Origin: Sphaerodactylus townsendi
Lineage: Eukaryota
NCBI RefSeq assembly: GCF_021028975.2
Contig: NC_059428.1
Location: forward strand, 101,370,001 to 101,434,000
Length of the DNA: 64,000 bases
Direction: 5' to 3'
The position numbers and the translations under genes were made by a program. Positions 5,201 to 62,252 of this stretch are shown one piece after another; position 1 is the stretch's first letter; each line of letters begins with the position of its first letter. The notes under the pieces are model-generated. The model ran no database searches and was not told the origin of the DNA. It saw nothing but the letters and a program-made list of their open reading frames with translations.

Positions 5201-6395
5201 GTGGGGGGGATTGCAATGACCATCCCACCTGCAGTCACCAAATGTGATGTCCACTCTTTTTTCTTCATACAGAAATATATAAGTGTCAATTAATATTAGT
5301 TCCTGTAATTCTTCTTCCCCATATGGTAGTTGCTACCAGGAATATAAACCCCTCCCCCCAAAAAAAACCCTTTATCTCCTTTTGGTAGTGTGTATGAGAT
5401 TATAAGAGCTACATGGTTCTAAGGAAAGTAGGGTTAGATTCTAACGTTTCTTCAAACTAGGTAAGATTTCAATTATAACTGATAAGTAACATCAAGATTT
5501 TAAGCAAAACATTTACAAAATGAAATTAAATCAAACTGAGGCAACAATTACTTTGAGCACTTCACTCAGCATAAATTCACTCTGATACTTTCTGACGGCT
5601 TCACTCTCACACACAGTTCTCTCAGACTTTCTGTCTTTATTTTGTCTTGAGGCTCTGACTTTCTCTGTATACACTCTGACACACTGACTGATTCTCTCAC
5701 AGAGCTTTGAGCCTCTCCGGCTTCTCACTCAGAAACCCTAACACATTCTGACTTTTGCTCACACAGAGCTTTGACACACTGGGCCTTTTCACTCAGAAGC
5801 CTGACTAGAACTTTAGCACTCTCAGCCCTTTCACTCTGAAACCCTGTTATACTGTGCCAGTCCAGCACAGCCCTCCCACATGCACAATCTAGAATCAACC
5901 AATCATACCGCTCTCTCATTCCCCTCTCACCCTTCTCCCTCTCTCCAACTCAGCTCTCAGCTTAAAGTCACACACATACACACACCAAATTATTACAGGG
6001 GACACTACTGCATCTTTAAAACAAATATTGTATTCTGGGTGCTTGTTTGCTACTCCCTTGTATATTTTTAAATGAATAAATACTACAAAAATGCTGACAT
6101 TTCTACTGTTCAGGTGTGTAAAATATTGCTTCAGTTAATGGGAGTTGCTCTCTCCCTTCCCCCATAGGTGCATAGGATCCGGCAACCAGGATATTGTTCC
6201 TTACTATTGACTAACTGATGCTATTGTAAACATTACACATCTGAGTCTTACTTGAATGAAGAAATTGACCTCAGGAATGCAAACACTAATGGGAAAAGGA
6301 CAAGGAAGAGTTCCAGCCCTCTTCGCGTAAAGTCCATCGAAACAGCTTTCTGAGTCTGATTTCAGTTGCAAACTGAACGAGCAAGAAAAACCAAA

Positions 6396-6491
6396 ATGAC
6401 CTCCCTACTGCAGGATAAACTGTATGAAGTTCACATGCAAGCGCCTCCCCCTAGCAAAGACTTTCATCACTTGACAATTACAAAAAATGAG
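6396..6491 (+). CDS. FBXO36-like F-box protein, coding exon 1 (MTSLLQDKLYEVHMQAPPPSKDFHHLTITKNE)
   Basis: ATG at 6396 after in-frame stops; PPPSKD motif as in the FBXO36 N-terminus; 96 nt; GT donor at 6492. Confidence 0.88.
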
Positions 6492-6865
6492 GTAAAAAGC
6501 ATTGGTCTCTTCTTATTTGGGGTTTGAATGGGGGAAAGCTGTACCTGGTGAGCTTATGCCTTTCACGCAGCTTTTAAAGACAGAGGAAGGGAAAGTTGGC
6601 AATCCAAAATATTGGTTGTGTGGGCAGTCCTGGAAAGGATCCAGTGACTTGCCCTCCTGTGGCTGTGTTTTCAAAAAAGGGGGAGGGGTAGCAACATAAG
6701 TTACTTTATTTCTCTGTAAACAGTGTAATTAGTTCCTATGCAAGTCTAGTTTGAAAGTAAAGCCCCCAGTTCCTGTTTTAAATCTAGGCTGACTAGGCTG
6801 TTGACAAAAAGGAAATGGAACAGCATGCACAAGTTGGTTCATTCTTTTAATTACTGATGCTGTAG

Positions 6866-6974
6866 GTTATCTGGAGATCATGGAAAATCTCTTTTCGACC
6901 CAATCAAGAAAAGATTTTACCAAGAGAAGTGAAGAAACTTCATAAAGATTTTGTCTTGGATGAACAATTACACA
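6866..6974 (+). CDS. FBXO36-like, coding exon 2 (VIWRSWKISFRPNQEKILPREVKKLHKDFVLDEQLH)
   Basis: TAG acceptor; resembles FBXO36 VIFRWWKISLR...HEDFL; 109 nt, phase 1; GCAAGT donor. Confidence 0.85.
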
Positions 6975-7252
6975 GCAAGTATTGAGTGGCCAAAAAACTT
7001 CAATCAGACTTTATATTTCTAGTATTTGTGATTCTATAAGTCACTATACTATATTTAATACTTGATCTTTCATATGTTTTATCAAAATAAGTACTACTAA
7101 GTTCAAAATAACTTTTTTCCTTATAACAGCTCAATCATGTTTAGTGGGAAGCAAGTTGTATCATGTTAAATATAGTTTACTTCCAAGGAACTGCAGACTT
7201 AGATCACTTTTTGGAAATTCCAGTACTAAACATGTACTTTCTTCATACTTTC

Positions 7253-7547
7253 GAGAGCCAGTGTGGTGTAGTGGTTAAGAGCAGGTGGATTCTAATCTGA
7301 AGAACTGGGTTTGATTTCCCACTCCTCCACCCGAGTGGCAGAGGCTTATCTGGTGAACCAGATGTGTTCCCGCACTCCTACATTCCTCCTGGGTGACCTT
7401 GGGCTAGTCATAGTTCTTCAGAACTCTCTCAGCCCCACCTACCTCACAAGGTGTCTGTTGTGGGGAAAGGAAGGGAAAGGAGCTTGTAAGCCACCTTGAG
7501 TCTCCTTATATGAGGTGGGGTATAAATCCAAACACCACTTCTTCTTC
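7253..7547 (+). mobile_element. Squam3-type SINE, full length
   Basis: GAGAGCCAGTGTGGTGTAGTGGTTAAGAGC head, GGGTGACCTTGGGCTAGTCA core, TATAAATCCAAAC..CTTCTTCTTC tail. Confidence 0.85.
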
Positions 7548-7998
7548 AGAGTAATTGATGAAATATACACAGGATTTTGTGTTTTTCTACCATTAATATA
7601 TAGTACTTAGTTATGATCCTGAGCACATTCTAAAAAATGTCTGATCCACTAAAATAACGGAGGCTTGCTTCAGTTAAACTAATCAAAAATAGTGGCAAGC
7701 ATGCATCTTCTTTAAGCAGCTGCCTGAATGATCAGAATTGTCAGATTCTCAATAGATCTGGTTGCTCTGTTCATGCAACCAGACTGTGTATGTGTGAAAC
7801 AGGAAAAGGCCGTCACTCTAGCTCAAAGCTAGAGTATCATCTACAGGACATTAGCTACCAGAAGCTGAACACTTGTGCATGTACAGTGTGATTATTTGAT
7901 TTTTTAAACTTTATAATTTCAAAAATAAACTACCAAAATGAAAAATATGGTGATAACTATGTTCACAGATGTAACAGAAGAGTAAATATGTTGTAATA

Positions 7999-8377
7999 CA
8001 GGTGTCCTCAACCTGGTGTCCACTAACAACTTTTCTGGCACCACTAAGTGTTTTTAGAAACGTATAGACAGGTGGGGCTCCTGCTCAGCAGGACTTCCGA
8101 CTGGCTGTGCAGATTAAAATAATGTTTTGACTGTAGCAGCTACCACATAAAGATAGCCGTTATGCTATCTCAGTACTCTTTTTCAGTATATATTAAAATT
8201 TCTCCACTTGCTCCCTGCACTTGGGCTTCATTTGTATGTGCCACTGTCTCGGGGGGGGGGGGGCATTTTATTAGTTAGCTCTGCCTCTCATAGAAGCTAT
8301 TCTGTGGTTATGCCCACAGTTCTGAGTCAGAATAGCAAAGGTGCCCACAGGCTCAAAAACACGGGGGTCCTCAGCTG
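7999..8377. mobile_element. Degraded non-autonomous hAT-like element
   Basis: CAGGTGTCCTCAACC left end, decayed right end, TGTAAT-containing flanks. Confidence 0.4.
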
Positions 8378-8469
8378 TAATTAATATTCCCAGAGCAAAT
8401 GGCTTAGATTTTCATTTATCTGTTTTCTTCCATTTTTATCTTATTCCAGAAAACAATAAAAGGCCTCCA

Positions 8470-9060
8470 TATTTATTTATTTAAAATATTTCTATGCTAC
8501 CTTTCTACCCAAGGCAGTGAAAATGAAAACATTAACTTGCTTAAAACATCAAAGCAGTATTTAAACATAAGGTGTATCTAAGATATTTAAACAATTCAAT
8601 AAAAATGTAGAGCCACACAAACACAAAAAACAACACAACCAGGGAGACTAGTAAGAGTTACTGGAGGTATTCCAAACCAAACAAAAAGATCTTCATATGT
8701 TAGGGAGACAGAAAAATCTCGCTGGGGAGGAAGTTCAAAAGATTTGGAGCTATGACCGAGAACACCCTTCTCAGGTTGGCATCCTTCTAGTCTCAGATAA
8801 CACTGGGACTTTGAAGAGGACCAGAGAGCATGAGCAGGTTTACATTGGAGAAGGTGATCCTATAGGTATCCTGACTCCAAGTGCCTTGAATTGAACCGGG
8901 AAGCAAATTGGAAGTGAGTATAGATAGAACAGTGCAGGAGTGTTATGGTCCCAATGACCTATTCCAAGCAATAGTCTAACTGTAGCATTCTGTACCAGCT
9001 GTAGCTTTTGAACAGTCTTCAAGGGCAGCCCCACACTGATCTCGTTGCAGTAATCCAATC
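8470..9060 (-). mobile_element. L2-clade LINE 3' fragment
   Basis: ORF 8840-9058 DYCN..GLPLKTVQKLQLVQNA..DH.TP.L..L..LPI..VQFK is the typical L2 ORF2 C-terminus; TAAA-type tail near 8470. Confidence 0.8.
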
Positions 9061-10734
9061 GAAAATATCACGTAACACTGATGAACAAACAATCTGCATG
9101 AGTGTGTTCTTCTCCCTTAACATGTTGCATCAACCTTTTTGAGTAGTGCTTTTTGATAAATTATGTGATCAGGCATTGGATTGCTCCGGAAAGTGCCCTT
9201 TCATGCACCAGTTCTGACTGTCAAGGCTCTGCAGAGGAATTCTAAGAATGATGGCCACACACTGCAAAATGGCAAAATCCAGTGAGGACTTTCCATCAAA
9301 GGCAACAGCAGAACTTCTTCAGAGGTTCTCTATTACCTCCTCAGCTGAGCAAACTGGCTGAGAAGAATAAATAGGAGAAGATTAGTTATATAAGCCTGTT
9401 AAAGGTTGCGGTGTTGCTAGCCTAAAGGGAACGTATTCATAGCCTAGGAGGTCTTCCCAAGTGCTTAATGAGCTACAAATAAATATGGAACGAGGCATAA
9501 ACTGATTCCAGAAAGGAAAAGGCCATTATGTGAAGTAACTGAAAGCTTAGGATCTTTCTGGGACTGAGCAGTGCCATTTTTATTCTATGTCGGACACCCT
9601 TTGTGTCTTACAACTTGATACAATGTTTGTGAATTTTATAGGGGTAGTATTTAATTAATATTTTCCTACAGCTCAACTGGTTTTAATTTCTCTCTGGGGA
9701 AGGGAAAATTGGGATTACAAATGAAACAAGAATCCAGAGTTCACCATCAGAAACATGGAACGAAGCTCCATTAGATCAGTGTTATAGTCATGATGGAAAG
9801 GACAGGGTGGGGCAGGGGAGGGGAGTTACAAAGTGACTGGTTTAAAACAAGATAGATAAAAACTTATAAGTTCACTTGCTAATGTTAGGCAAAATAGGAT
9901 TAGCATAAAACCTAGTGTAGAATTTACAATAAGGTAGAAATTGACATCTGTACGAGATAATAAAGACACTTCTTATGATACTAATTGGAATGTACACTAT
10001 TCAAAGCATAAGATATCATGGTACCTTTCTGTAATTTATTAAATAGCTTGGAGGAGGATGGGAAACCTAGCACAAAGGAGTGGGCTGCTGATTTTGGTGA
10101 GCGATGCCAGAATACTTTGAAATGAGCCCAGATTAAAAATTTCCCGTGGTGCTTAAAAAGCTAAACCATAGAGTCGTAACCACTTACCAGTATTTTAATA
10201 TGATGTATTATGGTAATTTCACCTAAATTTAATGTTGCTTTTTTATTTTAGAGATTTAAAAATACATTTTTTCCATAGCCCCAAGAATTGTAATTGCAAG
10301 CCGTCTTTTTTTTTCCTTGAAAGCTAATCAGACAGCAGTTGGTCGAAAGTAAGAAATCAAGTGTTTAATTTTCTTTCACAAATTTAGAGTTGGGCTGGCA
10401 AATCCTGTGAGTAACCTAGAGATTAAGGGCATGTTTACATTGCCTTTTCTGGCATGGAGTCCTTTGTTTTTGCTAGCTTTCTACTGTGGGTTCCACATTC
10501 TTATGATGCTATTAAAGAGAGATTTTGCCTTTCCATTGAAATTGAATATAACAGTGTGCCATCACTGGGTACTGTGCCAAGGTCTGGGAGAACTTTAGGA
10601 CATTAAAGTCCCTCCCTTTGCTTGGTGTTGCCCTTCTTTGTTCTCTATGCTGGCAGAATAAATGCCAGTATTGATGGTAGCATCTGCATGCTATTCTCCT
10701 GGCACTGGAATTACATAACTGTTACAGCCCCAGT

Positions 10735-11180
10735 ACATAAGGACATAAGAACAAGCCTGCTGAATCAGACCAGAGTCCATCTAGTCCAGGGGTAGGGAAC
10801 CTGCGGCTCTCCAGATGTTCAGGAACTACAATTCCCAATTGGCCATGCTGGTAGGGGCTGATGGTAATTGTAGTTCCTGAACATCTGGAGAGCCGCAGGT
10901 TCCCTACCCCTGATCTAGTCGAGCACTTTGCTACTCGCAGTGGCCCACCAAGGTGCCTTTGGGAGCTCACATGCAGGATGTGAAAGCAATGGCCTGCTGC
11001 TGCTGCTGCTCCTGAGCACCTGGTCTGCTAAGGCATTTGCAATCTCAGATCAAGGAGGATCAAGATTGGTAGCCATAGATCAACTTCTCCTCCATAAATC
11101 TGTCCAAGCCCCTTTTAAAGCTATCCAGGTTAGTGGCCATCACCACCTCCAGCGGCAGCACCACCTTTTGTGGCAGCAGT
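10735..11180 (-). mobile_element. CR1 LINE 3' fragment, interrupted by a hAT MITE
   Basis: ACATAAG-type tail and CR1 3' sequence GCCTGCTGAATCAGACC..GTCCATCTAGTC; CCCCTTTTAAAGCTATCCAGGTTAGTGGCCATCACCAC. Confidence 0.7.
10787..10912. mobile_element. hAT MITE, palindromic, 8-bp TSD ATCTAGTC
   Basis: Long TIR CAGGGGTAGGGAACCTGCGGCTCTCCAGATGTTCAGGAACTACAATT; TSD at 10779-10786 and 10913-10920. Confidence 0.92.
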
Positions 11181-13586
11181 ACTGGCAAATCTTGAATGTA
11201 CACTGGTATAGGGGACTTTGCGCCTTTCTAGATGGTGTAACTAGAGCTTAGAGTCACTAGTTCATTTATTTTAAAATCATGCACATCACTTTTAAGGGGC
11301 GAAAACAGATTTAATCTGAACTGCATGTTAATGGTACTGGTTTATTGTAAAAAAGAAATAAAAGAAACTTTTAACATCTGAAATGCAATGCATGGTCCCC
11401 TTAATTTATTGCATTGTAAGTTATTCAACTTCAAAAAGGTACCAATTGCAAAGGTTTGGTAATATGCAGATATTTTTAGCATTAATTGACAGTTTTGGTT
11501 GATGCCCTCATGTTAACAGAAGCTGGACTGTACCATATTAACTTTGTCGTTATTGACTGTATAGACAACATGTCTTAAGTTTTTAAAAAAAGATATAACA
11601 GCAGCCTTCTAGAGTGTGTACATGTTTTAGGGTGTTTATCAGCATAAACTATCCTAGGTAGTACCATCTGATCCCCACCTTTTTTTTGCAAGTTAATTTT
11701 TATACATCCTTCATTTTTTCTTATATTGTCGCAAATGAAGTTTTACTAGGGAAATGACATTAATGGTGCAGTGCCAAAGCAAGATGTATATTCATTGCAT
11801 AGGGTTAGTTCAATTTCCTTCTGTCTCATTTGTTTTTAAGGCAGCCATTCTCTCTTCAGAATTAGCTGTTTGTTCTGGCTATGTACTTAACGAATAGAGC
11901 GAGACCACATGATGTGGTAGCTATGGAGAAATCCATTCATCATTCAAATATAACTAGCCAAGTCCTTTTGATAAATATGATAATTATTCTTTAAGCCAAC
12001 TTTATTATATTTGGAATCTGAAAAACTTTCAGAGTAGAAAAGGCTGTTGTATTTGCACTGTGGCGTATGAAAAGGAAATGCCTTGCACCTAACTCGCCAA
12101 AGGAAACAATGTGCCTTTCATAAAGCATGCCCAGGCAAATCAGAATTAGTATTCTACTTTATAATTACCATGGCAGCTTGCTGTATCCTGTGCACTAAAT
12201 CACCCTTCTTACTATGGTAATGTAATTCTTTGATGTGGCTTTGGGTTGTTTGAAAAGGCCAAGGTATTGACCACGGCAGAGAGCGGGAGTGGAGAACAGG
12301 CAATTCTAATGGAAGATTTACATTACCATATGCTCCTACCATAGCATGATGTTTTGCAATCCACCTTTTGGATTTGTTGGCACAGCTGCTGAAATGTTGT
12401 TGAAATATTTGAGTTCCGCACTGATGTCTGTTGATGTTATGGTTAGCAGAAACATTGTTAAAGCGGTGCTTTCCCCCAAAATACCAGAAGTACAGTTGCA
12501 AAGCCGAGCCTGGCAACGAATAAGAGACTAGGGGAACCAGGGACAGAGAGGTGGAAATGAGACTTCATTTCCAAGAAAATCTGAAAGTGATGTCGTACAT
12601 CTCTAGCAATTGTCATTAACTCTGTGGTAAAATCTGGTTTGTCTCTGGAAGTGATGCTAGCCCTCTAGCAATTGCAAAAAACTCTGTGGTTTTACCACAG
12701 AATCTCAGCAATTCCTAGAGAATGAGGATATCACTTCCATTTCCCTCCAGAAGTCATGTCAGTGACCTTTTTAAAACAACAATTCCCCTGGAAACAAGAG
12801 GCAGGGTATCCTGCACCCCCACCAGGACTGATGCGAAGTTTTGATACAGTCTGACCAATGACTCTTGCCTTTAATCCTATTGGTGAATTATTTGTGGTTT
12901 TCTTTCACACATACACATTCTTAGCACATGCATGTCAACGTATGTGTGAACAAAAGTACATATTTGTGAGATGATGCATTTGAACTCACTTAGAGAAAAG
13001 TGCTATACTGATTTATTCCTGGAGACTAGTAGGAGGCCTAAACTCAAGAAACAACGATAAAAACACCTCTCACACAAGTACATCCTCATTATTGTACAGT
13101 GTACTGCGCATGCAACACTGCATGTTTCAGTGAATCTTTATGTTGTTACATGTACGTATATTGGAGATTTTGCATTCTCTGATAAGACTTTTAAAAAACA
13201 ATATAAAGTTTTAAAAATGTAAATATACCATGTTAAAGAGGAGTTAGGTGAACATTTGCTTTAGAGTTAGGAATTCTGGTACTGTTCAACACTATATTTT
13301 TTAAAGCATCTGAAATGAGTGTACTGGTGGATCCGTTGATTCAGGTACAAGTTCTTCATATAGCTGTCTTTAAATGACAGTCAATCCTTCTTTGTTGCAT
13401 TTCTGCTGTTTTGCTGTTGTTGTGATTACTTTTTATGCTATGTCATTTAAATGTATTTGCCTCTACATTTTTCCCTTCCCTATAAAACAAACTTTTTCAT
13501 TAAAACATAACACATCATAAGATGGAATTTTCGTGCTGTGGCTGTATTTAAAATATTTTCTTGTGTATATTTTTTTAATAATTCAG

Positions 13587-13759
13587 AGCAACTACAAGGC
13601 ATCTTTGGAAAGAAAATGCTAGACTATGTTCTCAACCTGTGTCAAGAACATTATGATTTCCTTGTTCGAATGCCTGAGAAGTTGATTATGCACATCTTGT
13701 CATTCCTCAATGTGGAGGATATTGGACAATTGTCAAAAACATGTAAAAAGTTTCGCAAG
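13587..13759 (+). CDS. FBXO36-like, coding exon 3 with F-box (QLQGIFGKKMLDYVLNLCQEHYDFLVRMPEKLIMHILSFLNVEDIGQLSKTCKKFRK)
   Basis: F-box consensus (L/M)P.E/K....I.S.L...D...L..TCK.F; CAG acceptor, GTAACA donor; 173 nt. Confidence 0.92.
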
Positions 13760-14022
13760 GTAACAATTCTACATAATTATTTAACGGAATGTATTTATTT
13801 TCCAAAGAATTTCAACAAGATGGGACCTCCAGATTAAATGAACTTCACAGAAGAAACTTGTGAAACTAGTTATCATTGGACGTTTCCAAGCCTACTCAAT
13901 AATATTGGTCCCAGAGTAGATCACAAGATAAATTGACTACAGTAAGCACATTTTGAATAAGCTGAAAGGCTGAAATATACTTGTGTGTTGCGTAATGTAC
14001 ATTGCAACTATTTAATTTTCAG

Positions 14023-14187
14023 TTGTGCAGCACTGAAGAATTTTGGGAAAAAATAAAACGGTTGCAAGATAGCTACAATCTTGATGCAAAAACAATCACG
14101 ATCCCAGCTTATAAGAGGCCATCGAATTCCAGTCGGAGACCAGGCTACTTGGCACAGATGCAGAGAAGACAGACTACGTTTTTCTAA
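14023..14187 (+). CDS. FBXO36-like, last coding exon (LCSTEEFWEKIK...RRQTTFF*)
   Basis: TTTTCAG acceptor; LC....W completes the F-box; stop TAA; total CDS 543 nt = 180 aa. Confidence 0.85.
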   Translation: MCSTEEFWEKIKRLQDSYNLDAKTITIPAYKRPSNSSRRPGYLAQMQRRQTTFF

Positions 14188-14846: not shown

Positions 14847-15849
14847 TAAGACTTCATTATGGCACATTTTTACTGGAACTTCTTCCCTCCAGCTGTTCAT
14901 CTGGTGCCGACTATCATCAAGCTTTCAGCACTAGGTGACAACACTTTTATTTTCAGACACTTGTGGATGATTGAATGCATTGTTCTCCTGTGTTGTTTTT
15001 ATGCCTGAACTGCATATTGGTTTTTTGATGTTCTATTTGTTGCTTTCCTGCTGTTATTTTTATGGGTTTTTGTCACTTTAATTTTGACTGTAGCTTCATT
15101 ACTTATACACTGTTAATTTTATTTCGTTACTTCGCTTTTTCCTGATCTATTTTAAGTGAAATAAACTGACTCATGAACTGAAACGGTGAAGTCATGTTTC
15201 AAATAAACAAACCAGGCTGGAAGTCCAATTGGAATGGGTAGAAGTATGTAGATATGCATGTAGATATGCACGTAGTTGGTCTACTGCTATATATTCAAGT
15301 TCGTTTATTAAAAGGAAAGATTAGTAAGAGGCCCAAGTATGATTAAGTAAACCTATATGAAACAACATTGCCAGACCAGGCAAATATCTACCTTTTCTGA
15401 TACATATAAATAATGTAATGTAACTAATATAAAATAACTATAAATAAATAAATAAATCAAAACATGGAGAATCTTTCCCTTTTGAAGTGATTATTAACTA
15501 TTTCAGCCAGCAGCCCTCCAAGCTCCACTTTCTTGGTCTTAACCAGTGAGGATGGATGTGGATTTAAACATGTGGTAGCTTTGACAACTCAAATCACTCT
15601 ATTGACCTATTTGGAAGAAACAACGTTGAAATGATCTGGACAATTCTGACATGGTTGCTTCTTACATCCCTGATCCAAAAATGATGAAGATAAAACACCT
15701 TCCCAGCCACTAAGGCCTCTCTTTTTCTCGTTTTTTTTTTGTTTCAATTTGTTCAGTCTCAACCGTTTAACGGTAACAGTCAGGCAGTCATTCAGGACCT
15801 CTATTGCATCAGGAGATTTGGATAAGGGTAGGGCGGTCTATTAAATTTA

Positions 15850-15851
<2 letters not shown>

Positions 15852-15931: not shown

Positions 15932-18480
15932 TAGAGCTGGATATCATGAGCATATTGAGCTTAGCCAGCCGACAAACAATGAATGATTTGGCCTAAGGGC
16001 TTTACATAGAGATTAAAAAGCATGGGGAATAGGATTGCACCCTGTAGAACTCCAGGGGATAGGTCCCACAAGGAAGAAAACTGGTCTCCAATGGCAACCC
16101 TTTGAGTCCAGTCCATGAACACATGCAGATGTTGCCAAAAATGTGCAAAATAAAAAATAGAATCACTTGAGAATAGGAAAGCAAAAGCATGTGATGTCAG
16201 GGTTGGGGTTTGTGTGCAGCATAGGGGAGGAAGTGGAGACCAGTAGGGGAAACAGATTTCTTCTTCCCTGCCAGTCTTTACAGGCTCATCAGTTCTATAC
16301 TCCTAGTTCTTGTCAGAAAGTGTTCTAAAATGATTTTAATCAAAATCCCGGATCTAGATCTTGTGCATAACAAATCCCCTACCACAGTTACTAATCTTGA
16401 ATGGTAGTGCACATTGTGATCCAAAGAAAAAGATGTACCCAGTTAATATAATGCAGTCCCATATGAGTATCACAGTGTGGAAGCAGAGGCACACTTATGC
16501 CTACAAAGAAATCTGTTTAAATGGATGGATTGGGCAAGGAGATTACATTCAAATAATCACGTTAACTGGTTTATCAACCTGGTGGGTTGATCAAAGCAAT
16601 CAAATGCTGATAGTAGGATTAGTAATAGATTTAAAACCTATGAAAAAAAAAACCCCAAGAATTAATGTGAGCCTTGACAGAGACGTGGTGACCTTGCTGA
16701 AGATCCTAGTAACAACATGAGTATATCTAATGGAAGGATTTGTTCTGGTCTATCACAGTGAGCAGAGAGAATTGCCATAGCTGTTTACTGTGCATTCTAT
16801 TCCGTAGCTTATTTACATATATCAACATATAGGCTCCATCGGTGACATGAAAAAACATGTAATATGAAACATTAAGGTACAAAACATTGTCATATATTAA
16901 AAGTGGCAAAACATTTAGAAATGGTATTTCAGGAAAATCAGATACAGCATTAAGCATTCGTGCTTCAGTAAAACATTTTCTGATTTAAACATAGGAAATC
17001 TGTTGAAAGGCAAAAGCAGCTCAGAAGTGGCTTCACATTATAACAAACACTGGGGCCAGCTATCTAAGACAGTGGTAGAGTGATGTGTAACAATTATGTA
17101 CTTGTTGAATATAAAATGGGAATGACAAAGTTCTATAAATGGGAATGACACCGTTCAGCAAAAGTAGAGGGAAGAAGGGCATTGAATCCTTTTCACCCAC
17201 CCTCTGGTTGTTTCCTGATAGAGTTCTGATATGAGAAGTAATTCCCAGGAGAAAAATGGCATGATGGAAGTAGTTTCAGGATAGAAAGCACGACTAGATA
17301 AAGAGTTCAGCATTCTTATCCTACTCATTATGTTGGACTTTGACAGTGTCATTCTAAGCAGAGCTCTACCCTTCTAAGTCGTTTGAAATTAATGGACTTT
17401 AAAAAGTGTAATTCTGCTTAGGATTGCACTGTATTGGAACTCAGCGTGACCCAAGTTCAAATATGGACACTGTGCTACCATAAATGTCTAATTTGCCCCT
17501 CCCCTCAATGATCAGAAAAAGCTCAGTGAGGTACTGACGACTGCAGACACTGGACACAAATGTCCAAGTTAGAACATGATCCTGCAAATATGCCTTAACT
17601 GCCCATGAACTTGCTAGGATCTTGTATTGTCCTACAACAATAATTTGAACATTACCTTCATTATAGGTGCCATTCATTTCTTATTGTTAATTATGCATTA
17701 ATACATGCTAAAGTAGGACTGAGCTCTTTGTAGGACCAAGGCTATAGTACCTCTGTTATTGCTCCTCCCCCGAGACCGAAATCTAACAATTATTCTCGGC
17801 AGAATGCTTTATTTTCTTGGGATTGCAGGACTGGGATCTGTAGTAACTTTAACTGATAGGATAAAGGCACAGTTTTTAAAAATCCTCTCAAGCCAACAAA
17901 AATCCTCTCAAGACTGGAAAAGGCATTTTTGGAAGTATTTGACATGACACACAAAATGTGAGATAAACTAATAATCAACAAAAGTTTCCACATTCTGGAT
18001 TAAATCTAGCATAATATTCAACAATATTTAAACATGTCCTCATATTTAGGTGACAGTCTGCCCAAAGGAACTATCTGCTGCCCATTAGGCATAGAGTCAA
18101 ATGACTAATTACAAAATGCCTGTAAAAAACCCCAGGATTTTCAGGATATTACTGGCATAATAAGCAATCAAATATGCATTGGTACAACTGATGAGTGCAG
18201 AAGGTGGACTCAATACATAACGTGTACCTCAGCTGGAAAGTATAAATGCACATTCAACAAGCCCTTATGACGCAAAAGGCCTTTCCCCTTCTTTTTTTCA
18301 TAAAGTGTTTTGATGTTATATGTATGCAACGTTGCATGTGAATCAAACTGCTGCCAGCAAAGTAGAGGGTGGGGGGGTGGGGGAGGCCATAATAGTTGGG
18401 TGATGTTGGTTGAGTTCTGAGAACACGGAAGATTCTGTGGGAACTATAATTCTTCTTGTCTTTGTTTTGTTCGTTTTGTT

Positions 18481-18654
18481 TTATTCTGCATCTTCGCTCT
18501 TCTCAGAACCAGCTCCGGTTGAATTGTCTGCCTCATACTTTCTGTCATAAGCATCTTCCAGAGACTTTTCAGCATAGTCATAGGACCTACTTGTAGACCC
18601 CGTATGTGTTCGAATGCGAACTCCTGGCTGGTATAGTTGCATGGCTGGCCGATC
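18481..18654 (-). CDS. UPF3A: UPF3A exon 10 (DRPAMQLYQPGVRIR...SEDAE*)
   Basis: Second half of the EJC-binding motif; polypyrimidine+CAG acceptor; TAA at 18483-18481. Confidence 0.93.
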   Translation of the reverse strand, partial: DRPAMQLYQPGVRIRTHTGSTSRSYDYAEKSLEDAYDRKYEADNSTGAGSEKSEDAE

Positions 18655-20183
18655 CTGTGCAAAAAAAACAGAAAGAAGACTTTCTCAAAGCCACCAGTTA
18701 TCCACTTAGGAGATCTCAAGATGTCTAATCTGAGCTGATATAGACAAGGGAATTTTGCAACAAACTGCAGAAATGGGAAAAACTCGATTATTGTGATCTG
18801 GCATCTGATCATTTCTGTCTTGATTCCTGGCAACAAAGAACTTTGACTAAAATAAAACAATGGTGGCCAAATTTTGTAGGAAAGCAATGCGGGGTAGCAA
18901 AGTATTCAAAGCGTCCTATCAAATTTTAAATCCATTCTGATATTGAAGGAGAAAACTGGATGCAAACAAATATGGAAATGAGTCTATACTGTCATTATAA
19001 CATGACAATCTACAAACTGATACAACCATTTACAGCTTGATTAAACAGTTTGTTGACTGGCAAATTAATGCGCAAAGTTTATTTATTAATTAAAATACTT
19101 CTATTCTGCCTTTCCTTATGGCCCAAAGTGGTTTACAAACTATATTTACAAATATTACAATTCAAAACAAACATAATAAAACACCAAGTAACCCCAGGCC
19201 TCCAGAAGATACCTGCAATTTCTATCCCATTAAGTTGGGTCCAAGAGTTATTCCCAATGTGCAGTATTGTAACTTGTGGCAGTTTGCTTTGCTGGAGTAT
19301 CAGACTGGTCAACACTAAATCCTGGGCAATAGTCGGATATGGGAAAGACAGAAAACAGCTCACTACAGACAATTCTAAAGAACTTTCATCTAATATATAA
19401 CCAGCTGCATAGACTAAGGCTGCAATTCCAAACACAGCCCCATGGAACTTTCACACTTTGTTGGATAAGTGTAATTAATTATATTGGGGTTGCAATTAAC
19501 AAGCAGCACAGCAAAACTGCTTACAAATGACACTGCTGTAGTGAGGTTAATGAAAGCCACTCTTTGTGCCATGGGACCCTTGCATATCCACAGGATCGAG
19601 GTGTAAGAAATACTTTTTTGTAGAAATTACCATTCTCTTGAACCTCTAAACTGTCACTGAGCATACTTGTATAAATCTTGAGAAAAAGGATTCCTTGTCA
19701 TTTTCAGATGACCTTTCCCCATTATTCAACATATATCCCTATTGTTTCTTTCCTGTTATGTAACCTGTGCTAACAGCTGTTCAGCTTAAATCCTTTATGG
19801 CTAGGCTTTCCCCTTTCTGGTAATATAGTGGGTGATAAGGACAGAGGCTTCTTTGGGACTGGATGGGTTCTCATGAAGAGGGTTTGTATTCTGCTGATTG
19901 TTAAAACAGGCACCAAATTTTTAAAGCCAAGATCCCAAGAATAATGCTTCATTACAGCATGTGTTTTTTTAAAAAATGCAAATATATAAATAAGCAGTAA
20001 AAAAGAGATGCCATGTCAATTTGAACTCCCATCATTCAAACTGCTTTGGCCATGTAATTATGAAGTGTGTATTTGACTGAAAATGAAACTGCTTAAAAAT
20101 CATGCTCTGATTACAAAAGCAAATCCTGTGTGACCCTGAAGAAATTTTACTAATGAAAGATTATCCTAAATTAATAAAAGAAC

Positions 20184-20478
20184 CTTATTTCTTATGCGCT
20201 CCTTTTTGGATGCCATGTCATCACACTTGTCCTCTTTACCCAGTTTGTCTACTGTGTCCACAGTGAAGCTGTAGTTGTAGCTCACTTTCTTCCCTCGGTC
20301 TTGGCTGTATCCTTTCCCCCATTTCAGCTCATCTTCATTCCTTCTCACAAACTTGTCAAATTCATAGTGAGTTCTGTGCTTTCGGCCGTCATCCAACCGA
20401 TACCTTTGTCTCTCTGGTTCTTTATCATGAAATCTTCGGTCTGATTCTCTTTGCTCTTTATCACTATCATTTTGTGAC
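20184..20478 (-). CDS. UPF3A: UPF3A exon 9
   Basis: 295 nt, ends KKERIRNK; AG/GT boundaries in phase. Confidence 0.93.
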
Positions 20479-20583
20479 CTGTGAGTGTTTTGAAAATGAA
20501 ACAACAACAATAACAACCACTAAACTTGGAAAATCAACTACTTAAAATTCACACAGTGAGAGTGACACCATGCCAAACAAAAG

Positions 20584-20895
20584 GTTTTCCAAGTGGTGTG
20601 GCTGTGATCTGGTGGTTCCTGTTCCTAACGTTTCGCCTGCATCTGTGGCTGGCATCTTCAGAGGTGTATCACAGAGGGAAGTCTGTTACACACTGTGTCC
20701 AGCGATAAGGGAATGTTTCAGTGGGGTATAAATTGTCATGTTCCCTAGTGGGGAACCAATCAGTAAGTGTTTGGGTGGGATTTGCTATGCAAAGGTGTGG
20801 TTGATAGTATAGTATTGCAGGTGGGTTTTTTTCAGTCCAGGGAGTGATTCACATTTGCATTCCCTGCAGCAGCAGCAGTATTGGTGAATGCAAAC
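20584..20895 (-). mobile_element. Penelope-like element terminal fragment
   Basis: Characteristic ACGTTTCGCCTGCATCTGTGGCTGGCATCTTCAGAGG segment; related pieces near 52255-52340 and 54025-54095. Confidence 0.6.
20624..20664 (-). ncRNA. Minimal type I hammerhead ribozyme motif
   Basis: CCU CUGAAGA U GCCAGC-CACAGAU-GCAGGC GAAA CG UU AGG on the minus strand. Confidence 0.55.
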
Positions 20896-22201
20896 ACAGG
20901 ATTTGCATTGAAATCACTGAGGCACAACATTCTATAGCAAGTGCCAAGCCCTGACAAGTTTCAAGCTAGGGAAGGCTTCATTAAGAGATAAGTTTTAAAA
21001 CACACTTTCTAATTCTGAGATTAAAGGTTTCCTTGGCCACTTTTCTTAAATATTCCCTGAGTGTCCCAGCTCAGAATGTGTTAGGACTTTGCACTTTCTA
21101 TTAAAATAATTTTCATACTCATTTACTAAATGACCGTGGGATTCTGAAGCTTTGTTAAAATACATCTCCCTATGTCAATGATACAACAGCCTGGGCGATG
21201 TTCAGCTACAGAAGTTTTGCATAAAGCAAGGTATTGTGCTCAACTATACTATAAATGGAGAAAGTGTTGTAGAAATGGCCCAGCTGCACTGGAATGGCTT
21301 CCAAGGTAAGTCCCGAAAGAAGGTTTGGAGGACTGTGAATTCATAGGCCAGACACAACAGGAAGATGCATCATAGGACAGAACATAAAAAAAGGAGGTGA
21401 GCTGAGATCATGTAGCTCAGGCACCAGCCTGATCCCTCAGGTCTATGTATTGCATTCCTTTACATCTTTATGTTGGCTTGTAGGCAGATGGCCTATAGAC
21501 CAGCCATATGTGCATATTTATCATTTGCAGCATCAAGTGGGATAATATCACAGTTCAAGTGCCACAGTTCAAGTCTTTGTATCTTTGAGCTTTTAGTTGA
21601 GGCCCCCTGTTTGTCCAATGCTGTCTGCCGGCCTCCCAACCACTTACTACCAATGCACATATTATATCTTCCTAATTCTCTCCCCGCCCCCCCGCCCGGA
21701 CACCACTCAGGCAGTCCTTAGCAATGGGATTGCATTGAGGTAAGGAGGATATTCCTTTATAGGGTTATTTCTAGATTTTACCATCTTTTAAGGGTTTTTT
21801 AACATTTTTGATTTTTAAGATTAAATGCTAAACTAGTTTTACAAATTCAATATTTATGTAATGTTTTAAATATGTATGGGCACTGACCTGAGCCTGACCG
21901 GTCAGGAAGGGCGGGGAATAAAGTGCTTATGAATGGAGTCAGTTCACCTTGAGCTACAAGTCATCAAGTATATGATTAAAAAACAGAAGCCAAGTGATTG
22001 GTTCAGCCTTTCAACCCTACTAAGGACAAGAGTTTGAGTGCTTCAACAGACTCCAGCAGTTAGTCTCTAGGCAAAGGGAGTTAAGTCCAAAGAACAGGGA
22101 AGAGTAATCAATACAAGATGTTCTGCTGTATTATCTGTGGGATTCACTGATATAAAATGCTCTGAGTAAGACATCAATCTTTAAAATAAGGAATCACTTA
22201 C

Positions 22202-22350
22202 TTTTCCTTCAGTTCCTTTAGTGAACCTTCTGGTGGCTTGGATTTTATGCTCCCATGCCCTGGAGATTTCTCCCATTTACTTTCTTCTATGTCTTTTTCT
22301 CTGTGTTTCTCTGTAGTTTGCTCATCTCCTTTCTCTGGCTTTTTAAGAAG
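22202..22350 (-). CDS. UPF3A: UPF3A exon 8 (LLKKPEKGDEQ...)
   Basis: 149 nt, TAG/GTAAGT, phase fits exons 7 and 9. Confidence 0.92.
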
Positions 22351-24554
22351 CTAAAGAATAGATGTATTTAAATATCCAGTTATTATAGAAAGTCTTGCTT
22401 AGCTGTACAAACATCTACATTACACACTGTGAAATGTACTAATATTCAGCACAATGCATTTGTAAACAACCAACATTTGCTTGGTGGAGATACATCCTTT
22501 GTCCCGGCAAGATAGCCACACTCATTTGGCATTCACATTTGTATCCAGTGATGAAACAGGGACCATAATCCACCCACAATAAAGAAGACTGTGTCCACCT
22601 TTTTTTGGAAGTTAAGCATGTGCTCAACTCTCTCCTATAGAAAAAGATGGGATTTAAAAGTACTTAACTTTGATTAAAAATTTTGCTGCGGTGGGTATGT
22701 GCATGTGCATTCTCATTTGTGGAACTTGAGAAAAGACCATTAACAGAAGTACGCTTCTTCATTTATTAATTATGTTTAGATATTTGCCATTTTTAAATTG
22801 TACATTCATTAGACCTTCCAAGTACAAATCACACCTGCTTTGTTTTCCTGTTCAGACATTCCCTTCAAAATGTATTGCACTATTAAGTTGCAGTAGCACC
22901 CCTTGATCAGTATTTCAAATGCAATTACTGGTAATACACCATAGAAGTGTGATGGATGCATACAGATGCAAATGAAGCACAGGATATGGTCTGTTTATCT
23001 ACTTTCTCATTTCCCTTTTGGCAGGAAAAGAATTAATTCTATCCCAGTGTGTCACTGCTGTGAAGTAGGCAGTTTTGGGCATGAGGAAGAGAATGATACG
23101 CCTGTGTGTTTGTCCTTCCCATTCTGGGGACCTGCATAAAGGCCATGGGAGTGAAGCCTCTCAGTGATGTGCCCAGCTCCAGGGCTGTTGGCTGGATCTC
23201 AGCCCCAGGTGGGCAAGACTTGCACCCGAGTGGGATCTCAAGAATTGTCACTCCAATGTTGCTCCCCCAGTAGGGAGGCTGAAATAAAGTGGGGTGCCCG
23301 ATGCTATGCTAATGCCAATGTGGCTCTTTTCACTCTAGTTGTCATCTTTGGTTGGTCTGTTCCCACCTTCACTCTTGCTCCCTCCCCTGGTCTGAGGACT
23401 CCAAGCATCCCTTTGGCTGAAGAGATTTCTGCAGACATCAGCCATAACCTTGAAAGCCTTGTTCCATCACAAGAGTTAAATATGTGTGTTTAATTTATAC
23501 ATTTCAATTTAATCTGCTCTAGTAGATTTGCTCTTTGCTTGTGGTCATTCTGGTCTGGAATGTTTAGCTTAATCTATGGGGTGCTGGATAATGCACGGTC
23601 CTGGCCTGAGCAGGAAGCTGGACTGGTTGGCCACTCAAGCTTTACAATATTTAATTTTTAATCTGAATACCTAAGGGAGTAATCCTAAACAGGGGTACTC
23701 AGCAAAATTAGTCCAATGTTTGTCAATAGGGATAACACCTAGAAGAGCTAACAGTACAGTCCAAATGGGGTGGAGTAGTTGCGTGGTGACTGGGGACGGC
23801 ACAGCCCCAGCACTGCTGTGACACCTCTTAAGAGACTTGCTGTGTCACAGCCAGGAAGCCAAGAGTGATGGCTCCCCTTCCCCCATGAAAGTGGGCTGTG
23901 CCACCAATTTTGCCACACCAGCAGATGAGGCCTGAAAGGGCTCAGGAAAGTGACTAAAGCTGTCCCCACCCCCCAAAAATGCCACCTTTGGTGCTGGCAT
24001 GAGCTGCTGCACCAGAGGAATGCTCCAATGGCAGCTGTACTAGGTGTGCCCATGTATTGCACAGTCACATGGCTCCCTGACACCAGCATAAGTGCACTGG
24101 CATAAATGAACCAGCACAAATGGCATTTATGCTGATGCTGGGGTCACATCACCTCCTGAGCGGTTTCCGCCCACCCCCTTAGGATTCTACTGTTAGAGCA
24201 GTACAAAATGTTACAAATGTGTAAAACATATAAACAACTAGTTAAAAGAATTTTTAAATTAACCAATTCTGCATCTCATGAATTGTCTCCTGTTCGTTCT
24301 ACTCCACCAGAGCTCTATTTCCATTAATGATAAAAATGAGTTGTGATAGCTGCTGATGTTCCAAATGATTGTGTGGGTTTGTCTGTAATGATGCAACCCT
24401 AAGCCACTGATCCAGATATAAGTTTCACTGAAATCAATTAGACTTCTTCATGTGTATGCTTTTAGGGTTGGGATACATATGAAGCCACAATATAGATTCC
24501 AATACAACAAAAAGGTGGGAGATAGCTCAAAATTTCCACACTATCAAAATTTAC

Positions 24555-24713
24555 CTTGATCCTTATTTCTTTTTCAGCAATTTTCTTTTGCTTTTCTGCT
24601 TCCTTTCTTTTACGCCGTTCTTCTTCTCTGCGTTTTCGTTTCTCATCTTCCCTTATACGTTTCTTTTCTGATTCTCTCCTCCTTCGTTCTTCCCTTTTCT
24701 CTTCACGTATTCT
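24555..24713 (-). CDS. UPF3A: UPF3A exon 7 (RIREEKREERRRRE...IRIK)
   Basis: 159 nt charged coiled-coil; TAG/GTAAAT. Confidence 0.94.
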
Positions 24714-24807
24714 CTAAAAAAATTGAAAAATCATTTATTTAAATCTGTACAAATATTTCAAAAACTTAAACATAATTATTAAGCTTTAGTGCAAAATACA
24801 AACATAC

Positions 24808-24863
24808 CTGTTTTTCTAATTTTCTATTTTTAATATATTCCAAAAGGGGTGTTGTTCTTCTAG
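24808..24863 (-). CDS. UPF3A: UPF3A exon 6 (ARRTTPLLEYIKNRKLEKQ)
   Basis: UPF3 TTPLL motif; 56 nt; TAG/GTATGT. Confidence 0.95.
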
Positions 24864-25758
24864 CTAAAACACAAAAAATTGTGATGTAGTGTTCCACCTC
24901 TAACATAACTTTTAAAAATCATAAATATTTGCTTTTTTGTCCTTTAGGTTTTATTGCCATGATTAGTAACACACATTGGTTGTTTCATAATGGAAGTATC
25001 GCTATTAAAATGCTCATTAGCCTATCATTGAAAAGTCAGTAATTTCTCATCATGAAGGAGCATTGATATCAGTAAAACTAGACATATCATTATATCTCTG
25101 ATTTTTCATTGAAAACCCAACAACATCTAGAAAAATAATCTTGTATCAATTCCATCTTCTTCCTGGTTGCTGGAATTTTGCATAATCATCAACTCTCATA
25201 CATTTATATTTTTGTAGTTTTTTATTTTTAAATCCTGAGTAAAGATAGACATTTGAGCAAAATACTTGCTACAGATTTGTGCGAAACTTCACAGTAACCA
25301 AGCAATAATAGTTTCTTTGAATACACATTATTGCCTATAGTGTCCAGTTTTAGTGGAAATCTTTGCTCTGCTTTGAAGAAGGAGGTTATACAAAAATAAC
25401 TCTTAGTGGGTCATACACTGTCATTTAAACACTTTAGCTTAAAAGATGCCAGATCATCTTAAATCAGGAATAGGAGCAATCAATCTTACACAAGTCTATG
25501 TAAAATTCTAGTCAGGTCTATTTTGTGGGTCTGTCTCCCAGGAAAGTGTTGTTAGGTTGCACTGCTGTCCTTTCAACAATCCTGTAAGGTTGGCTAGTAT
25601 TGTTATCTCCAAAGCAGAGATGAAGTAATGGCTTGCCAAACACCACTCAGTGAATTCTCAGCTGACCTGACATTTGAACCAAGATTTCTAGTCTTTAGCC
25701 CATAATTTTAACCTCTAAGCTTCTCCAACAAAGCAGTCTTAAGAACACTTTTCTGTAA

Positions 25759-25899
25759 GGCTCATTCTGCACATGCAGAATAATGCACTTTCAAACTGCG
25801 TTCAGTGCTCTTTGAAGCTGTGCGGAATAGCAAAATCCACTTGCAAACAGTTGTGAAAGTGGTTTGAAAACGCATTATTTTGCATGTGTGGAAGGGGCC
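25759..25899. mobile_element. PIF/Harbinger-like MITE, TSD TAA
   Basis: Imperfect TIR GGCTCATTCTGCACATGCAGAATAATGC / GCATTATTTTGCATGTGTGGAAGGGGCC; TAA on both sides; second copy at 57291-57429. Confidence 0.8.
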
Positions 25900-26373
25900 T
25901 AAGTAAGTCCACTGACTAGATTCTGAGTAAATCTGCTGAGGATTTCTCTCTGGTTCTCTCGTCTTCAGCTTTCCACTGACACACAGTAAACAGTTAAGGT
26001 AAAAATGGCCCTAACAACAGTTTTAAGTTCTCAATCTTACATTGTGGATACAAGTATATAAAAACTGAATTATTTTCTTAATGGAATTCTATGGAAGTCA
26101 GATTCATACATTACCAGCACAGTGTGAAAACCCTTGTCAAGCATAATAAGGTACATCCCTGCCTTCCCTCCCTCCCACCCTGTCCCACTGCTACTGAATC
26201 CTTTTTGGAGCCTATCTGTGTGTAGTGTGCTAGCATTCCAATCCTGCTGATGTTAAACAGTAAGCAAGAACTGAAAGATAACAGAAGAAATAACAACCCA
26301 CTAATCTGAATTTTTAACCTCTAAAATCTAACAAATAAGTCAAACAGGGAAGAAAAGAAATACATGAACAGAC

Positions 26374-26484
26374 CAATGAGTTCCCTTGTTTTTGCCTCAA
26401 TCTCTCCCAACAGGGTCTCAGGATTGGCACAGATTTTTTCTTCTTCGACACAATAACTTTCTAAAAATTTTCTGTATTCTGGAT
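26374..26484 (-). CDS. UPF3A: UPF3A exon 5 (DPEYRKFLESYC...KTRELI)
   Basis: 111 nt; CAG/GTCTGT. Confidence 0.95.
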
Positions 26485-26596
26485 CTGTGAAAGAAAAGCA
26501 CAGCATTTACCAATGCATGGTATTTTTTGTTTCCATGAGAAAGCATCACTTAACTGCAATATTAGTACAATGTTTCTGCTAAGAAAATGGGTTTAC

Positions 26597-26695
26597 CATC
26601 TTCTATGCTTCCGGCTTTTGCATCTTTCTTCTTTAGCTTCTTTTTTGAAATCTTTTGGAATGGTGCAAATTCAACCACAGCAGGATACTCTAAGC
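26597..26695 (-). CDS. UPF3A: UPF3A exon 4 (GLEYPAVVEFAPFQKISKKKLKKKDAKAGSIED)
   Basis: UPF3 VEFAPFQK motif; 99 nt, phase 1-1; AAG acceptor. Confidence 0.95.
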
Positions 26696-27847
26696 CTTCA
26701 AAGAGTCACAAATGAATTAAGTGGAGTGGTAAAAGGAAAAAAATATTTTATTACATTTATATTCAGCAAGGTTGTTGTATTGCATACCCTCCCAGGAAAT
26801 CCTGGGAATCCAGTCTGGAATCCCAGTATCAAGTCCTTATTGATACAAATATCAGAAGAAAACAGTCACTGCCTAGGTTGGACATTTATTATACCCAACA
26901 AATATAAACTGCAGAAACAGTCTTTCAAACATATAGCCAGTTAGCATGTAGATGCACATGTAGGTCTGGGTCTGCACTGTGATGCTTCTTTGACTTCCAC
27001 GAATTTGGCAGGATATGCCTGTGGATGTCGATGCAAATTTACCCCTCCAAGGTCATTAATGTTGCCTATAAATGCTTTGCAGCTAGATTGTGTATCACTA
27101 GAACTGGATCAATGCCTTCATAAGCCTACATTTACATTTATTTTAATTTGGCAGAAAAAATAATGCAGCTCAGAGGAAAAAATTAATCAACACAGATGCT
27201 ATCACAGGAAGTTCAATCAGAGTACAATGGGATCTGCATTTTAAAATGATCCATTCCATTTTGTGAAATTCACATAAAGCTCAGTGGGATTTTCTCTACT
27301 ACAAACTTTATTACCTAAGTTATCTGCTAATCCTACCAGGTTTCCAATTCAAAATGCCCCTCGGGGGAGGGTGGTATAAAAATGCAACCAATAAATAAAT
27401 AAATAAAATGTAAACCTTCAGAGCACTTCACTTAAAGTCACTTCCAGCCACATAGCTGTGGATTTTATGACTGGAAGTAAGTAGCAAAGATAACCAAGAG
27501 TAAGATCACTGCTTATGGAAGTACAGTGTAGCAACCAATGAAAACTCATCCCTGCATGAGATTCTAGAAGTCTAGAACTGTGCCATAACTCAGAGTAATG
27601 CAGCATTCTGGAGAACTGAAAACAAGAATTTGCTAGAATTGATTATAACACCAAATGTAGCACCCCTGACAAGGTAAACCTCTGGCAGGACTAAACTGTC
27701 CCCAGAACTTTTGAAAAATGTGTACAACGTTTTGTTTTGGCTAAAGTAGCTACTGTAATGACACCTTCATGGACTTTTAATACCCCATGGGCTATTAGAA
27801 TTAATGGTGGGGTTCACAGGATCATGTCCACCACAATTATGAATTAC

Positions 27848-27954
27848 CTTTGTTGTCAATGAAGACATAGCCATCAAAACGATCTCTAAAAAGAAGGATG
27901 TCATCAGGATTTCTAAAATTAATATATGCTCTTGAGTAGAGGTGAGGATAAAGA
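27848..27954 (-). CDS. UPF3A: UPF3A exon 3 (SLYPHLYSRAYINFRNPDDILLFRDRFDGYVFIDNK)
   Basis: RRM-like UPF2-binding domain; 107 nt. Confidence 0.96.
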
Positions 27955-35952: not shown

Positions 35953-36066
35953 CTGTTGTTTTTTCAAAAAATTATAAAATAAACAGGGAATATATTACTT
36001 TAAAATCTCTATAACCCAGAAGACACTGCAATAAATAATTCTGCCATAAACAAAGAATGCACCTAC

Positions 36067-62250: not shown

Positions 62251-62252
62251 AA

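Follow-up and report, generated by a model that had tools for sequence, protein, structure and literature searches.

Within the 64,000-nt stretch of Sphaerodactylus townsendi DNA analysed here (the window) lies an intact four-exon paralogue of FBXO36, hereafter FBXO36-like. On our reading, to which we give a probability of roughly 60%, this gene predates the split between ray-finned and lobe-finned fish, is likely a product of genome duplication, and likely encodes an SKP1-binding SCF adaptor of male germ cells or ciliated cells.

Gene structure, domains and neighbourhood

The four coding exons lie on the + strand and join to 543 nt, which encode 180 aa in an open frame with TTFF-stop at its end. 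Exon 1 (6396..6491, 96 nt) supplies the start codon and opens the N-terminal beta domain of FBXO36 with its first strands, and exon 2 (6866..6974, 109 nt) carries the remainder of that domain. Exon 3 (13587..13759, 173 nt) encodes the helices that precede the F-box together with most of the F-box itself, while exon 4 (14023..14187, 165 nt) adds the last F-box helix, a predicted disordered tail and the terminal RRQTTFF-stop. An earlier reading of the sequence alone had proposed these four in-phase exons and the TTFF end. Both are confirmed by the spliced translation, given a GC donor in intron 2 that the earlier reading did not mention. The spliced product is identical at 180/180 residues to RefSeq XP_048348464.1, 'F-box only protein 36-like', and the gene is therefore already annotated. 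The first AATAAA 3' of the stop codon, at 15160..15165 (+), is a candidate polyadenylation signal. Upstream, a stretch at 6324..6344 (+) is a candidate for a conserved element of the promoter or 5' UTR; its translation agrees at 6/7 residues with an N-terminal extension of the armadillo model, in a match made by eye with chance uncontrolled. A search of the window against Rfam gave no matches, and a scan of positions 1–16000 for RFX X-boxes, run without a chance control, gave four one-mismatch sites, none near the start codon.

Exon 3 alone matches the Pfam F-box (PF00646, E 4.4e-9; 36.3 bits against a cut-off of 20.5), bearing out the F-box of the sequence-only reading. Its FBXO36 N-domain is likewise upheld: 36/90 residues are identical to canonical Eublepharis FBXO36 and the predicted strands are the same, such that the beta domain is predicted to be kept. 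Neither the four exons nor the one orthologue examined gave a Pfam match to WD40 or leucine-rich repeats. For the N-domain, none of 457 Foldseek matches reached E 0.001, VIA returned no clear relative (best Z 5.5, with scattered PH-like matches at 4.2–5.0), and Atlas gave no usable match by features, its structure search leading to F-box clusters and weak PH-like rows.

The direct neighbour, tail to tail and ∼4.3 kb away, is a UPF3-family gene (18480..30755, approximate limits, – strand; PF03467, E 9.7e-8), which we take from gene order to be UPF3A rather than UPF3B. The gene thus does sit beside UPF3A, as first proposed. Behind it on the – strand come a TPR-bearing gene (34625..52975, approximate limits; TPR match below cut-off), presumably CDC16, and a frame with a CFAP97-family exon (63049..63399; PF13879, E 0.0016, below cut-off), read as CFAP97D2. 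The description of FBXO36-like as next to an APC/C subunit gene holds only in part: CDC16 is nearby, but as the second neighbour, behind UPF3A. Position is the sole tie between FBXO36-like and the APC/C. No frame of CHAMP1 size was seen in the window's list of open reading frames. The entry for the Rousettus orthologue is named CHAMP1, which fits a UPF3A–CHAMP1 interval. Canonical FBXO36 is described as head-to-head with TRIP12 at human 2q36.3 (PMC7697007); in the window, 6.4 kb of DNA lie 5' of FBXO36-like, and the genes downstream of it are UPF3 and CDC16.

A separate clade and its age

In a tree of 54 rows, the FBXO36-like proteins form a clade of 22 rows (100/99) that spans sturgeon and bowfin to mammals and follows the branching order of the species tree; with tail columns removed, the clade is retained at 99/93. 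The gene tree across vertebrates, set beforehand as a check, places FBXO36-like outside squamate FBXO36, and the AU test rejects a recent origin by duplication within squamates (p 2.2e-59). At least 29 named species, counted by eye from protein listings, have both FBXO36-like and canonical FBXO36. The separate clade, the coexistence and the AU result together bear out the proposal of an ancient paralogue. FBXO36-like does not qualify as the canonical orthologue, given its separate clade and the lack of a W...FF tail in 49 like rows. It also evolves faster, with a median like/canonical path-length ratio of 1.57 that exceeds 1 in 59/66 (non-independent) pairs.

Both copies are present in Acipenser, Amia and tetrapods, so the duplication is older than the bony-vertebrate radiation, and by this sequence evidence the split precedes the parting of ray-finned and lobe-finned fish. 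Further back, the trees reject none of a post-shark, a post-cyclostome and a pre-cyclostome date. The lamprey joins the like copies at 82/75 in the tail-free tree, and placing it with canonical FBXO36 (p 0.383) or outside all jawed copies (p 0.29) is not rejected. As to mode, truncated canonical models start or stop at three places that coincide with the window's introns; this is indirect evidence, from protein models, fitting duplication at the DNA level and not a retrocopy.

An origin by genome duplication is likely. From map positions, FBXO36 and UPF3A are presumably linked with the IRS/COL4A blocks on a scale of several megabases. These blocks are described as genome-duplication paralogues in PMC5482937, and the split of the COL4A1/2 and COL4A3/4 blocks has been placed in cyclostomes (PMC12141075); for the FBXO36 pair this would favour the first round. 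We consider it unlikely, though worth weighing, that the same old paralogue arose instead by segmental duplication in the bony-vertebrate ancestor. Consistent with that alternative, the tests do not reject a duplication after the shark split, in which all bony-vertebrate copies unite (p 0.415 full, p 0.178 tail-free), and no like-type shark protein appears among the best 120 of 436 and the best 150 of 719 rows. In addition, Anolis, Hemicordylus, Tiliqua, Macrotis and Notamacropus have the two copies on equally long contigs, and hence probably on one chromosome. However, sharks group with canonical FBXO36 in both best trees, albeit weakly (49/71 full, 81/71 tail-free), and the pairs of sturgeon, bowfin, amphibian, bird, gecko and sloth lie on contigs of differing size. 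Genome duplication is further favoured by the presumed host regions, which correspond to the paralogon described above.

Tail replacement and proposed function

The two lineages differ most clearly at the C-terminus. The W...FF motif is found in 0/49 like rows versus 34/35 canonical-type rows, an RRx[S/T] kinase-type site in 46/49 versus 1/35, and only 4/43 tail residues match canonical FBXO36. AlphaFold pLDDT is <50 at residues 150–174 of the like model, compared to 88–94 at 131–180 of the canonical model. A disordered basic tail is predicted to have taken the place of the three C-terminal helices that are folded in canonical FBXO36. Low pLDDT in this tail may alternatively stem from a poorly conserved alignment. 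Canonical FBXO36, whose tail is the folded W...FF helical unit, also has the RR pair, and part of the 'kinase site' is therefore inherited; the coelacanth like model is without RRx[S/T].

Class I PDZ ligands have the form S/T-X-hydrophobic at the C-terminus, and TTFF had been suggested as one. The pattern is present in the window and in 34/49 like rows, and absent in ray-finned rows and 6/6 therian rows. The idea is weakened by the latter, because Thr at −2 is Ala in all six. Among the like tails sampled, RRx[S/T] (46/49) is better conserved than the PDZ pattern (34/49). We also considered whether an invertebrate F[LIMV]T motif persists in the tail. The motif occurs in 9/60 representatives with a canonical-type tail and in 0/114 vertebrate canonical rows; this candidate is weak, the match to the like tail being inexact.

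Some F-box proteins work outside SCF. It is accordingly conceivable, if rather doubtful, that FBXO36-like binds SKP1 without forming a working ligase, and either serves as a scaffold on SKP1 or competes with canonical FBXO36. This would be favoured by the near-complete divergence of the tail and by the absence of the W...FF helical unit, which canonical and invertebrate members keep. Against it, the F-box core and following helix are well kept (41/47 residues alike to the Eublepharis orthologue), and the F-box matches solved SCF F-boxes such as that of FBXW7 (E 4e-7). We prefer the ligase adaptor. According to PMC13432620, mouse canonical FBXO36 co-precipitates SKP1 via its F-box, is testis-enriched and is dispensable for fertility. 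Because the mouse protein binds SKP1, the F-box of FBXO36-like would be expected to do the same and, by analogy, FBXO36-like is likely an SCF ubiquitin-ligase adaptor. Its N-terminal domain would capture substrate, the terminal RRx[S/T]x[F/L]F would serve as a phosphorylation-controlled docking motif, and the protein would act in male germ cells or ciliated cells.

A bolder scenario, which we regard as improbable, would date the split to the first round of genome duplication and have the UPF3A-linked copy swap folded helices for a kinase-switched docking motif. The resulting phosphorylation-gated SCF adaptor of sperm or cilia would have been kept for >400 million years and then lost repeatedly (in the human lineage, pigs, bats, sea turtles and some birds), leaving a remnant readable between human UPF3A and CHAMP1.

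Survival, splicing and relation to known genes

The gene had been proposed to be kept in reptiles and lost in mammals. This does not hold: whole models are found in marsupials, sloth and armadillo (Xenarthra), and elephant and tenrec (Afrotheria) and, outside mammals, in amphibians, sturgeons and bowfin as well as reptiles. Pig, warthog and bat models were damaged in 10/10 seen. FBXO36-like appears to be dispensable and shows signs of having decayed independently in suids, fruit bats, sea turtles and some birds. One caveat here is that the damaged pig, bat, turtle and bird sequences, being protein models, may be annotation errors.

In S. townsendi, AG is found at every acceptor and GT at donors 1 and 3. 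The exon-2 donor is GC (ACA/GCAAGT; 6975..6976, +), giving a GC-AG intron at 6975–13586, and as the sequence reads the 180-aa frame is possible only with this non-canonical donor. The nearest GT, 4 nt further on at 6978, was ruled out, as it leads to a frameshift and stops. Contigs from three runs, X1 and X2 on one sample and X3 on another, span 5857/5947–7280 without a differing letter or gap; since they agree, the GC is not an assembly slip, though as contigs they speak for the letters and not for splicing. Models in other geckos have an identical exon 2–3 junction. A read-through serine in mis-modelled orthologues was rejected as a sign of a conserved GC donor, AGC and AGT both encoding Ser. 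The non-canonical donor, and one S. townsendi protein record that begins only in exon 3, could suggest a pseudogene whose donor was broken by a GT-to-GC change. We find this very improbable: the remaining donor letters fit the consensus, the junction is part of the RefSeq model, the frame is open through all four exons with 83% identity to gecko orthologues, and other reptile and bird models also fail at the exon 2–3 junction, which a shared weak donor would fit, although protein letters do not discriminate a GC from a GT donor.

Least credible of all is that FBXO36-like is a translocated FBXO36 orthologue or recent squamate duplicate; a canonical FBXO36 was seen in four other gecko species and not in S. 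townsendi, but those geckos (Gekko, Heteronotia, Paroedura and Eublepharis) carry it separately alongside the like copy, the trees and the AU test refute it, and the window protein is 32–39% identical to canonical copies and 37–83% to like copies.

A search under the names of the gene found no paper. Orthologues in many genomes bear the same automatic RefSeq name, a label for the same protein that is silent on origin, range and function. That of Xenopus tropicalis (LOC100145255, NP_001120208.1) has an NP_ and cDNA-type accession, and this intact copy opens the tail-swap question to experiment: the FBXO36 pair is a natural tail-swap on one scaffold of N-domain and F-box, and can reveal which end picks the substrate. 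FBXO36-like represents a second vertebrate FBXO36 lineage liable to be missed by human- or mouse-centred F-box catalogues, and its apparent repeated decay could be mapped onto the mammal tree. The finding carries modest weight, as the gene is RefSeq-annotated, hidden old paralogues are common and the mouse canonical knockout is fertile.

Teleost fbxo36a and fbxo36b likewise place a second FBXO36 gene in one genome, and fbxo36b was our first guess for the orthologue of FBXO36-like. The tree rejects this, setting fbxo36b apart: unlike FBXO36-like, the four a/b rows cluster together within the canonical rows (99/95). Hucho has a separate like-type fragment. Canonical FBXO36 has the same N-terminal beta domain, F-box position and apparent intron positions as FBXO36-like, and the predicted secondary structures of the two agree across roughly residues 1–140. 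Within one species, however, the two are only 32–43% identical, and it is FBXO36-like that has UPF3A and CDC16 as neighbours, evolves ∼1.6 times faster and survives patchily.

An ancient FBXO36 paralogue and its structure

The gene considered here is a real, intact and ancient paralogue of FBXO36, already annotated automatically and apparently unstudied so far: a search of the literature without most subscription journals found no paper on it by title, and the available text of an F-box gene survey of Euarchontoglires mentions Fbxo36 once (PMC3984280). We refer to this gene and its orthologues as "like", and to the ordinary FBXO36, neighbour of TRIP12, as "canonical". Its four coding exons lie on the plus strand exactly where the sequence-only reading had placed them, at 6396-6491, 6866-6974 (109 nt), 13587-13759 (carrying the F-box, which scores over the Pfam cut-off) and 14023-14187. 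Joined, they give an open frame of 543 nt encoding 180 aa with a C-terminal TTFF, and the product equals RefSeq XP_048348464.1 ("F-box only protein 36-like", Sphaerodactylus townsendi) at 180/180 residues.

A point absent from that reading is that exon 2 depends on a GC donor (ACA|GCAAGT), since splicing at the closest GT would put the downstream exons out of frame. Contigs from three sequencing runs representing two samples (X1 and X2 from one, X3 from the other) span exons 1-2 and this donor with zero differences, the best-covering run possibly being the window's own source. Many like models in our protein collection (P0005, P0006, P0016, P0026, P0036, P0037, P0039, P0044, P0070, P0071) go astray at the exon 2-3 junction. 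Such errors may reflect a common non-canonical donor, which could explain under-counting of the gene. Near the start codon, the translation of 6324-6344 agrees with the N-terminal extension of an armadillo model at 6/7 residues, hinting at a conserved non-coding element.

After the like gene, the minus strand carries a UPF3-family gene, tail to tail with it and ~4.3 kb from its stop codon, then CDC16 and a CFAP97-family exon; the labels UPF3A, CDC16 and CFAP97D2 are presumptive and follow in part the human gene order. Between CDC16 and the CFAP97 exon, an LTR-retrotransposon-like element (57700-62200, minus strand) matches reverse transcriptase and RNase H. Its coding region is broken across several frames, a search of 54001-64000 showed no pair of long direct repeats, and we read it as Ty3/gypsy type. 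High-copy interspersed repeats appear in the depth table at 1100-1420, 7250-7510 and 10740-11150, the last two within intron 2. A hairpin with 23-nt arms (4439-4503), lying roughly 1.9 kb before the start codon, is highly stable (-47.9 kcal/mol for 4415-4525; z -6.85, equalled in 0/200 shuffles) and has no match in Rfam. Its bin has 6 to 13x the contig depth of the single-copy bins at 6409-6942, making a small repeat just as plausible as a microRNA or a palindromic promoter element.

Phylogeny and origin of the pair

Querying with exon 3 returned 28 proteins from 34 candidates, and an 18-row alignment returned 76 from 816; the sources include squamates, turtles, alligator, birds, marsupials, caecilians, salamanders, frogs, coelacanth and placental mammals. 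Of 436 matches in a third search, the 120 listed are nearly all canonical, and the others are like-type proteins from sturgeon, paddlefish, bowfin and coelacanth. One turtle FBXO36-like protein (P0376) bears the source name "SLX4IP", an apparent mis-annotation.

The tree uses 54 of 368 collected proteins, hand-picked to favour full length and a broad taxon spread (22 like-type with the window's among them, 27 canonical, 2 lamprey, 3 invertebrate); Hucho apart, no fragment or damaged model was included. The proposal of an ancient paralogue is borne out: the like rows form a single clade (support 100/99; 99/93 without tail columns) ordered internally as the species tree, and both copies occur together in 29 named species, counted by eye over several match lists and including Gekko, Heteronotia, Paroedura, Eublepharis, Alligator, Gopherus, Macrotis, Choloepus, Ambystoma, Acipenser and Amia. 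The canonical FBXO36 of Sphaerodactylus townsendi was not seen among the matches listed. A recent squamate duplicate can be dismissed, as a tree that unites squamate like rows with squamate canonical ones is worse by 191 log-likelihood units (AU p 2.2e-59). Four teleost a/b rows fall among canonical rows, and fbxo36b is therefore a different duplicate. The like copy evolves faster, with a median path ratio of 1.57 that exceeds 1 in 59/66 non-independent species pairs.

On these alignments, the date of duplication is bounded from below only. Placing it after sharks is not rejected (p 0.415; 0.178 tail-free), nor is placing it after cyclostomes (p 0.29) or grouping lamprey with canonical (p 0.383), the lamprey rows being long and odd in composition. 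Truncated canonical and invertebrate models begin or end where the window's three introns fall, which points to duplication at the DNA level. We put the probability that the pair arose by genome duplication at about three in four. One main rival is a segmental origin; by cluster records, a rough guide only, most like/canonical pairs sit on contigs of unequal size, and five (in Anolis, Hemicordylus, Tiliqua, Macrotis and Notamacropus) on contigs of equal size.

In the wider neighbourhood, the COL4A1|2 and COL4A3|4 blocks are presumably a few megabases away from UPF3A and FBXO36. IRS1/2/4 beside COL4A pairs are described as genome-duplication paralogues (PMC5482937), and human FBXO36 is reported at 2q36.3, head-to-head with TRIP12 (PMC7697007); the general two-round framework is taken from PMC7269912. 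Cyclostomes are reported to have the COL4A1|2 and COL4A3|4 pairs, with COL4A5|6 restricted to jawed vertebrates (PMC12141075). If the COL4A linkage holds, the first round is more likely than the jawed-vertebrate round for the FBXO36 pair.

Range and decay

The further claim that the gene was lost in mammals does not stand, since whole models occur in marsupials (Macrotis, Petaurus, Sminthopsis, Notamacropus) and in 4/4 Xenarthra and Afrotheria seen. In boreoeutherians, the 10 models seen (Sus, Phacochoerus, Rousettus, Pteropus) each lack at least one part. Primates, rodents and carnivores contributed no like-type protein to the named matches of the exon 3 and 18-row searches, protein collections being blind to pseudogene remnants. 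Suid and Rousettus tails, like two from sea turtles, resemble what the last exon in the window would encode in its other two frames, and in several birds the model lacks its C-terminal end. Read from protein models alone, these off-frame tails and lost ends suggest separate decay across lineages. The sea turtles Lepidochelys and Caretta (P0040, P0050, P0052) have a common frameshift-like tail. The Rousettus model is filed by its source as CHAMP1, an indirect sign that the locus adjoins CHAMP1 in a placental mammal.

Protein architecture and proposed function

The AlphaFold model of a gecko like orthologue (83% identical to the window's) matches that of gecko canonical FBXO36 across roughly residues 1-140, in which a four-stranded N-domain is followed by two helices and the F-box. 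After the F-box, the canonical protein has three more high-confidence helices around its C-terminal W...FF motif, present in 34/35 canonical-type rows versus 0/49 like rows; in the like orthologue, pLDDT is <50 at 150-174. The like tail is conserved at its end, with RRx[S/T] in 46/49 rows and a terminal Phe in 44/49. TTFF had been put forward as a possible class I PDZ ligand, and the class I pattern is found in 34/49 like rows, position -2 being Ala in 6/6 therian rows. RRx[S/T] is a PKA-type pattern. Several invertebrate-type FBXO36 proteins (P0101, P0104, P0115, P0120, P0127, P0150, P0153) end in F[LIMV]T[E/Q/S/T], seen in 0/114 vertebrate canonical rows.

In the mechanism we propose, the paralogue would dock on SKP1-CUL1, its common N-domain would capture substrate, and the terminal motif would position or switch it. 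Mouse FBXO36 is reported to bind SKP1 via its F-box and to be testis-enriched from pachytene onward, its loss leaving males fertile with sperm velocity slightly down (PMC13432620); fbxo36 is male-biased in a fish gonad study whose available text does not specify the copy (PMC7090014). A second main rival is a like protein bound to SKP1 without a ligase role. The third, a local pseudogene in the gecko, sits poorly with the intact frame. Compared with known systems, the RR pair of the like tail is also present in canonical FBXO36, and the like F-box matches F-boxes of solved SCF structures, such as FBXW7 (E 4e-7).
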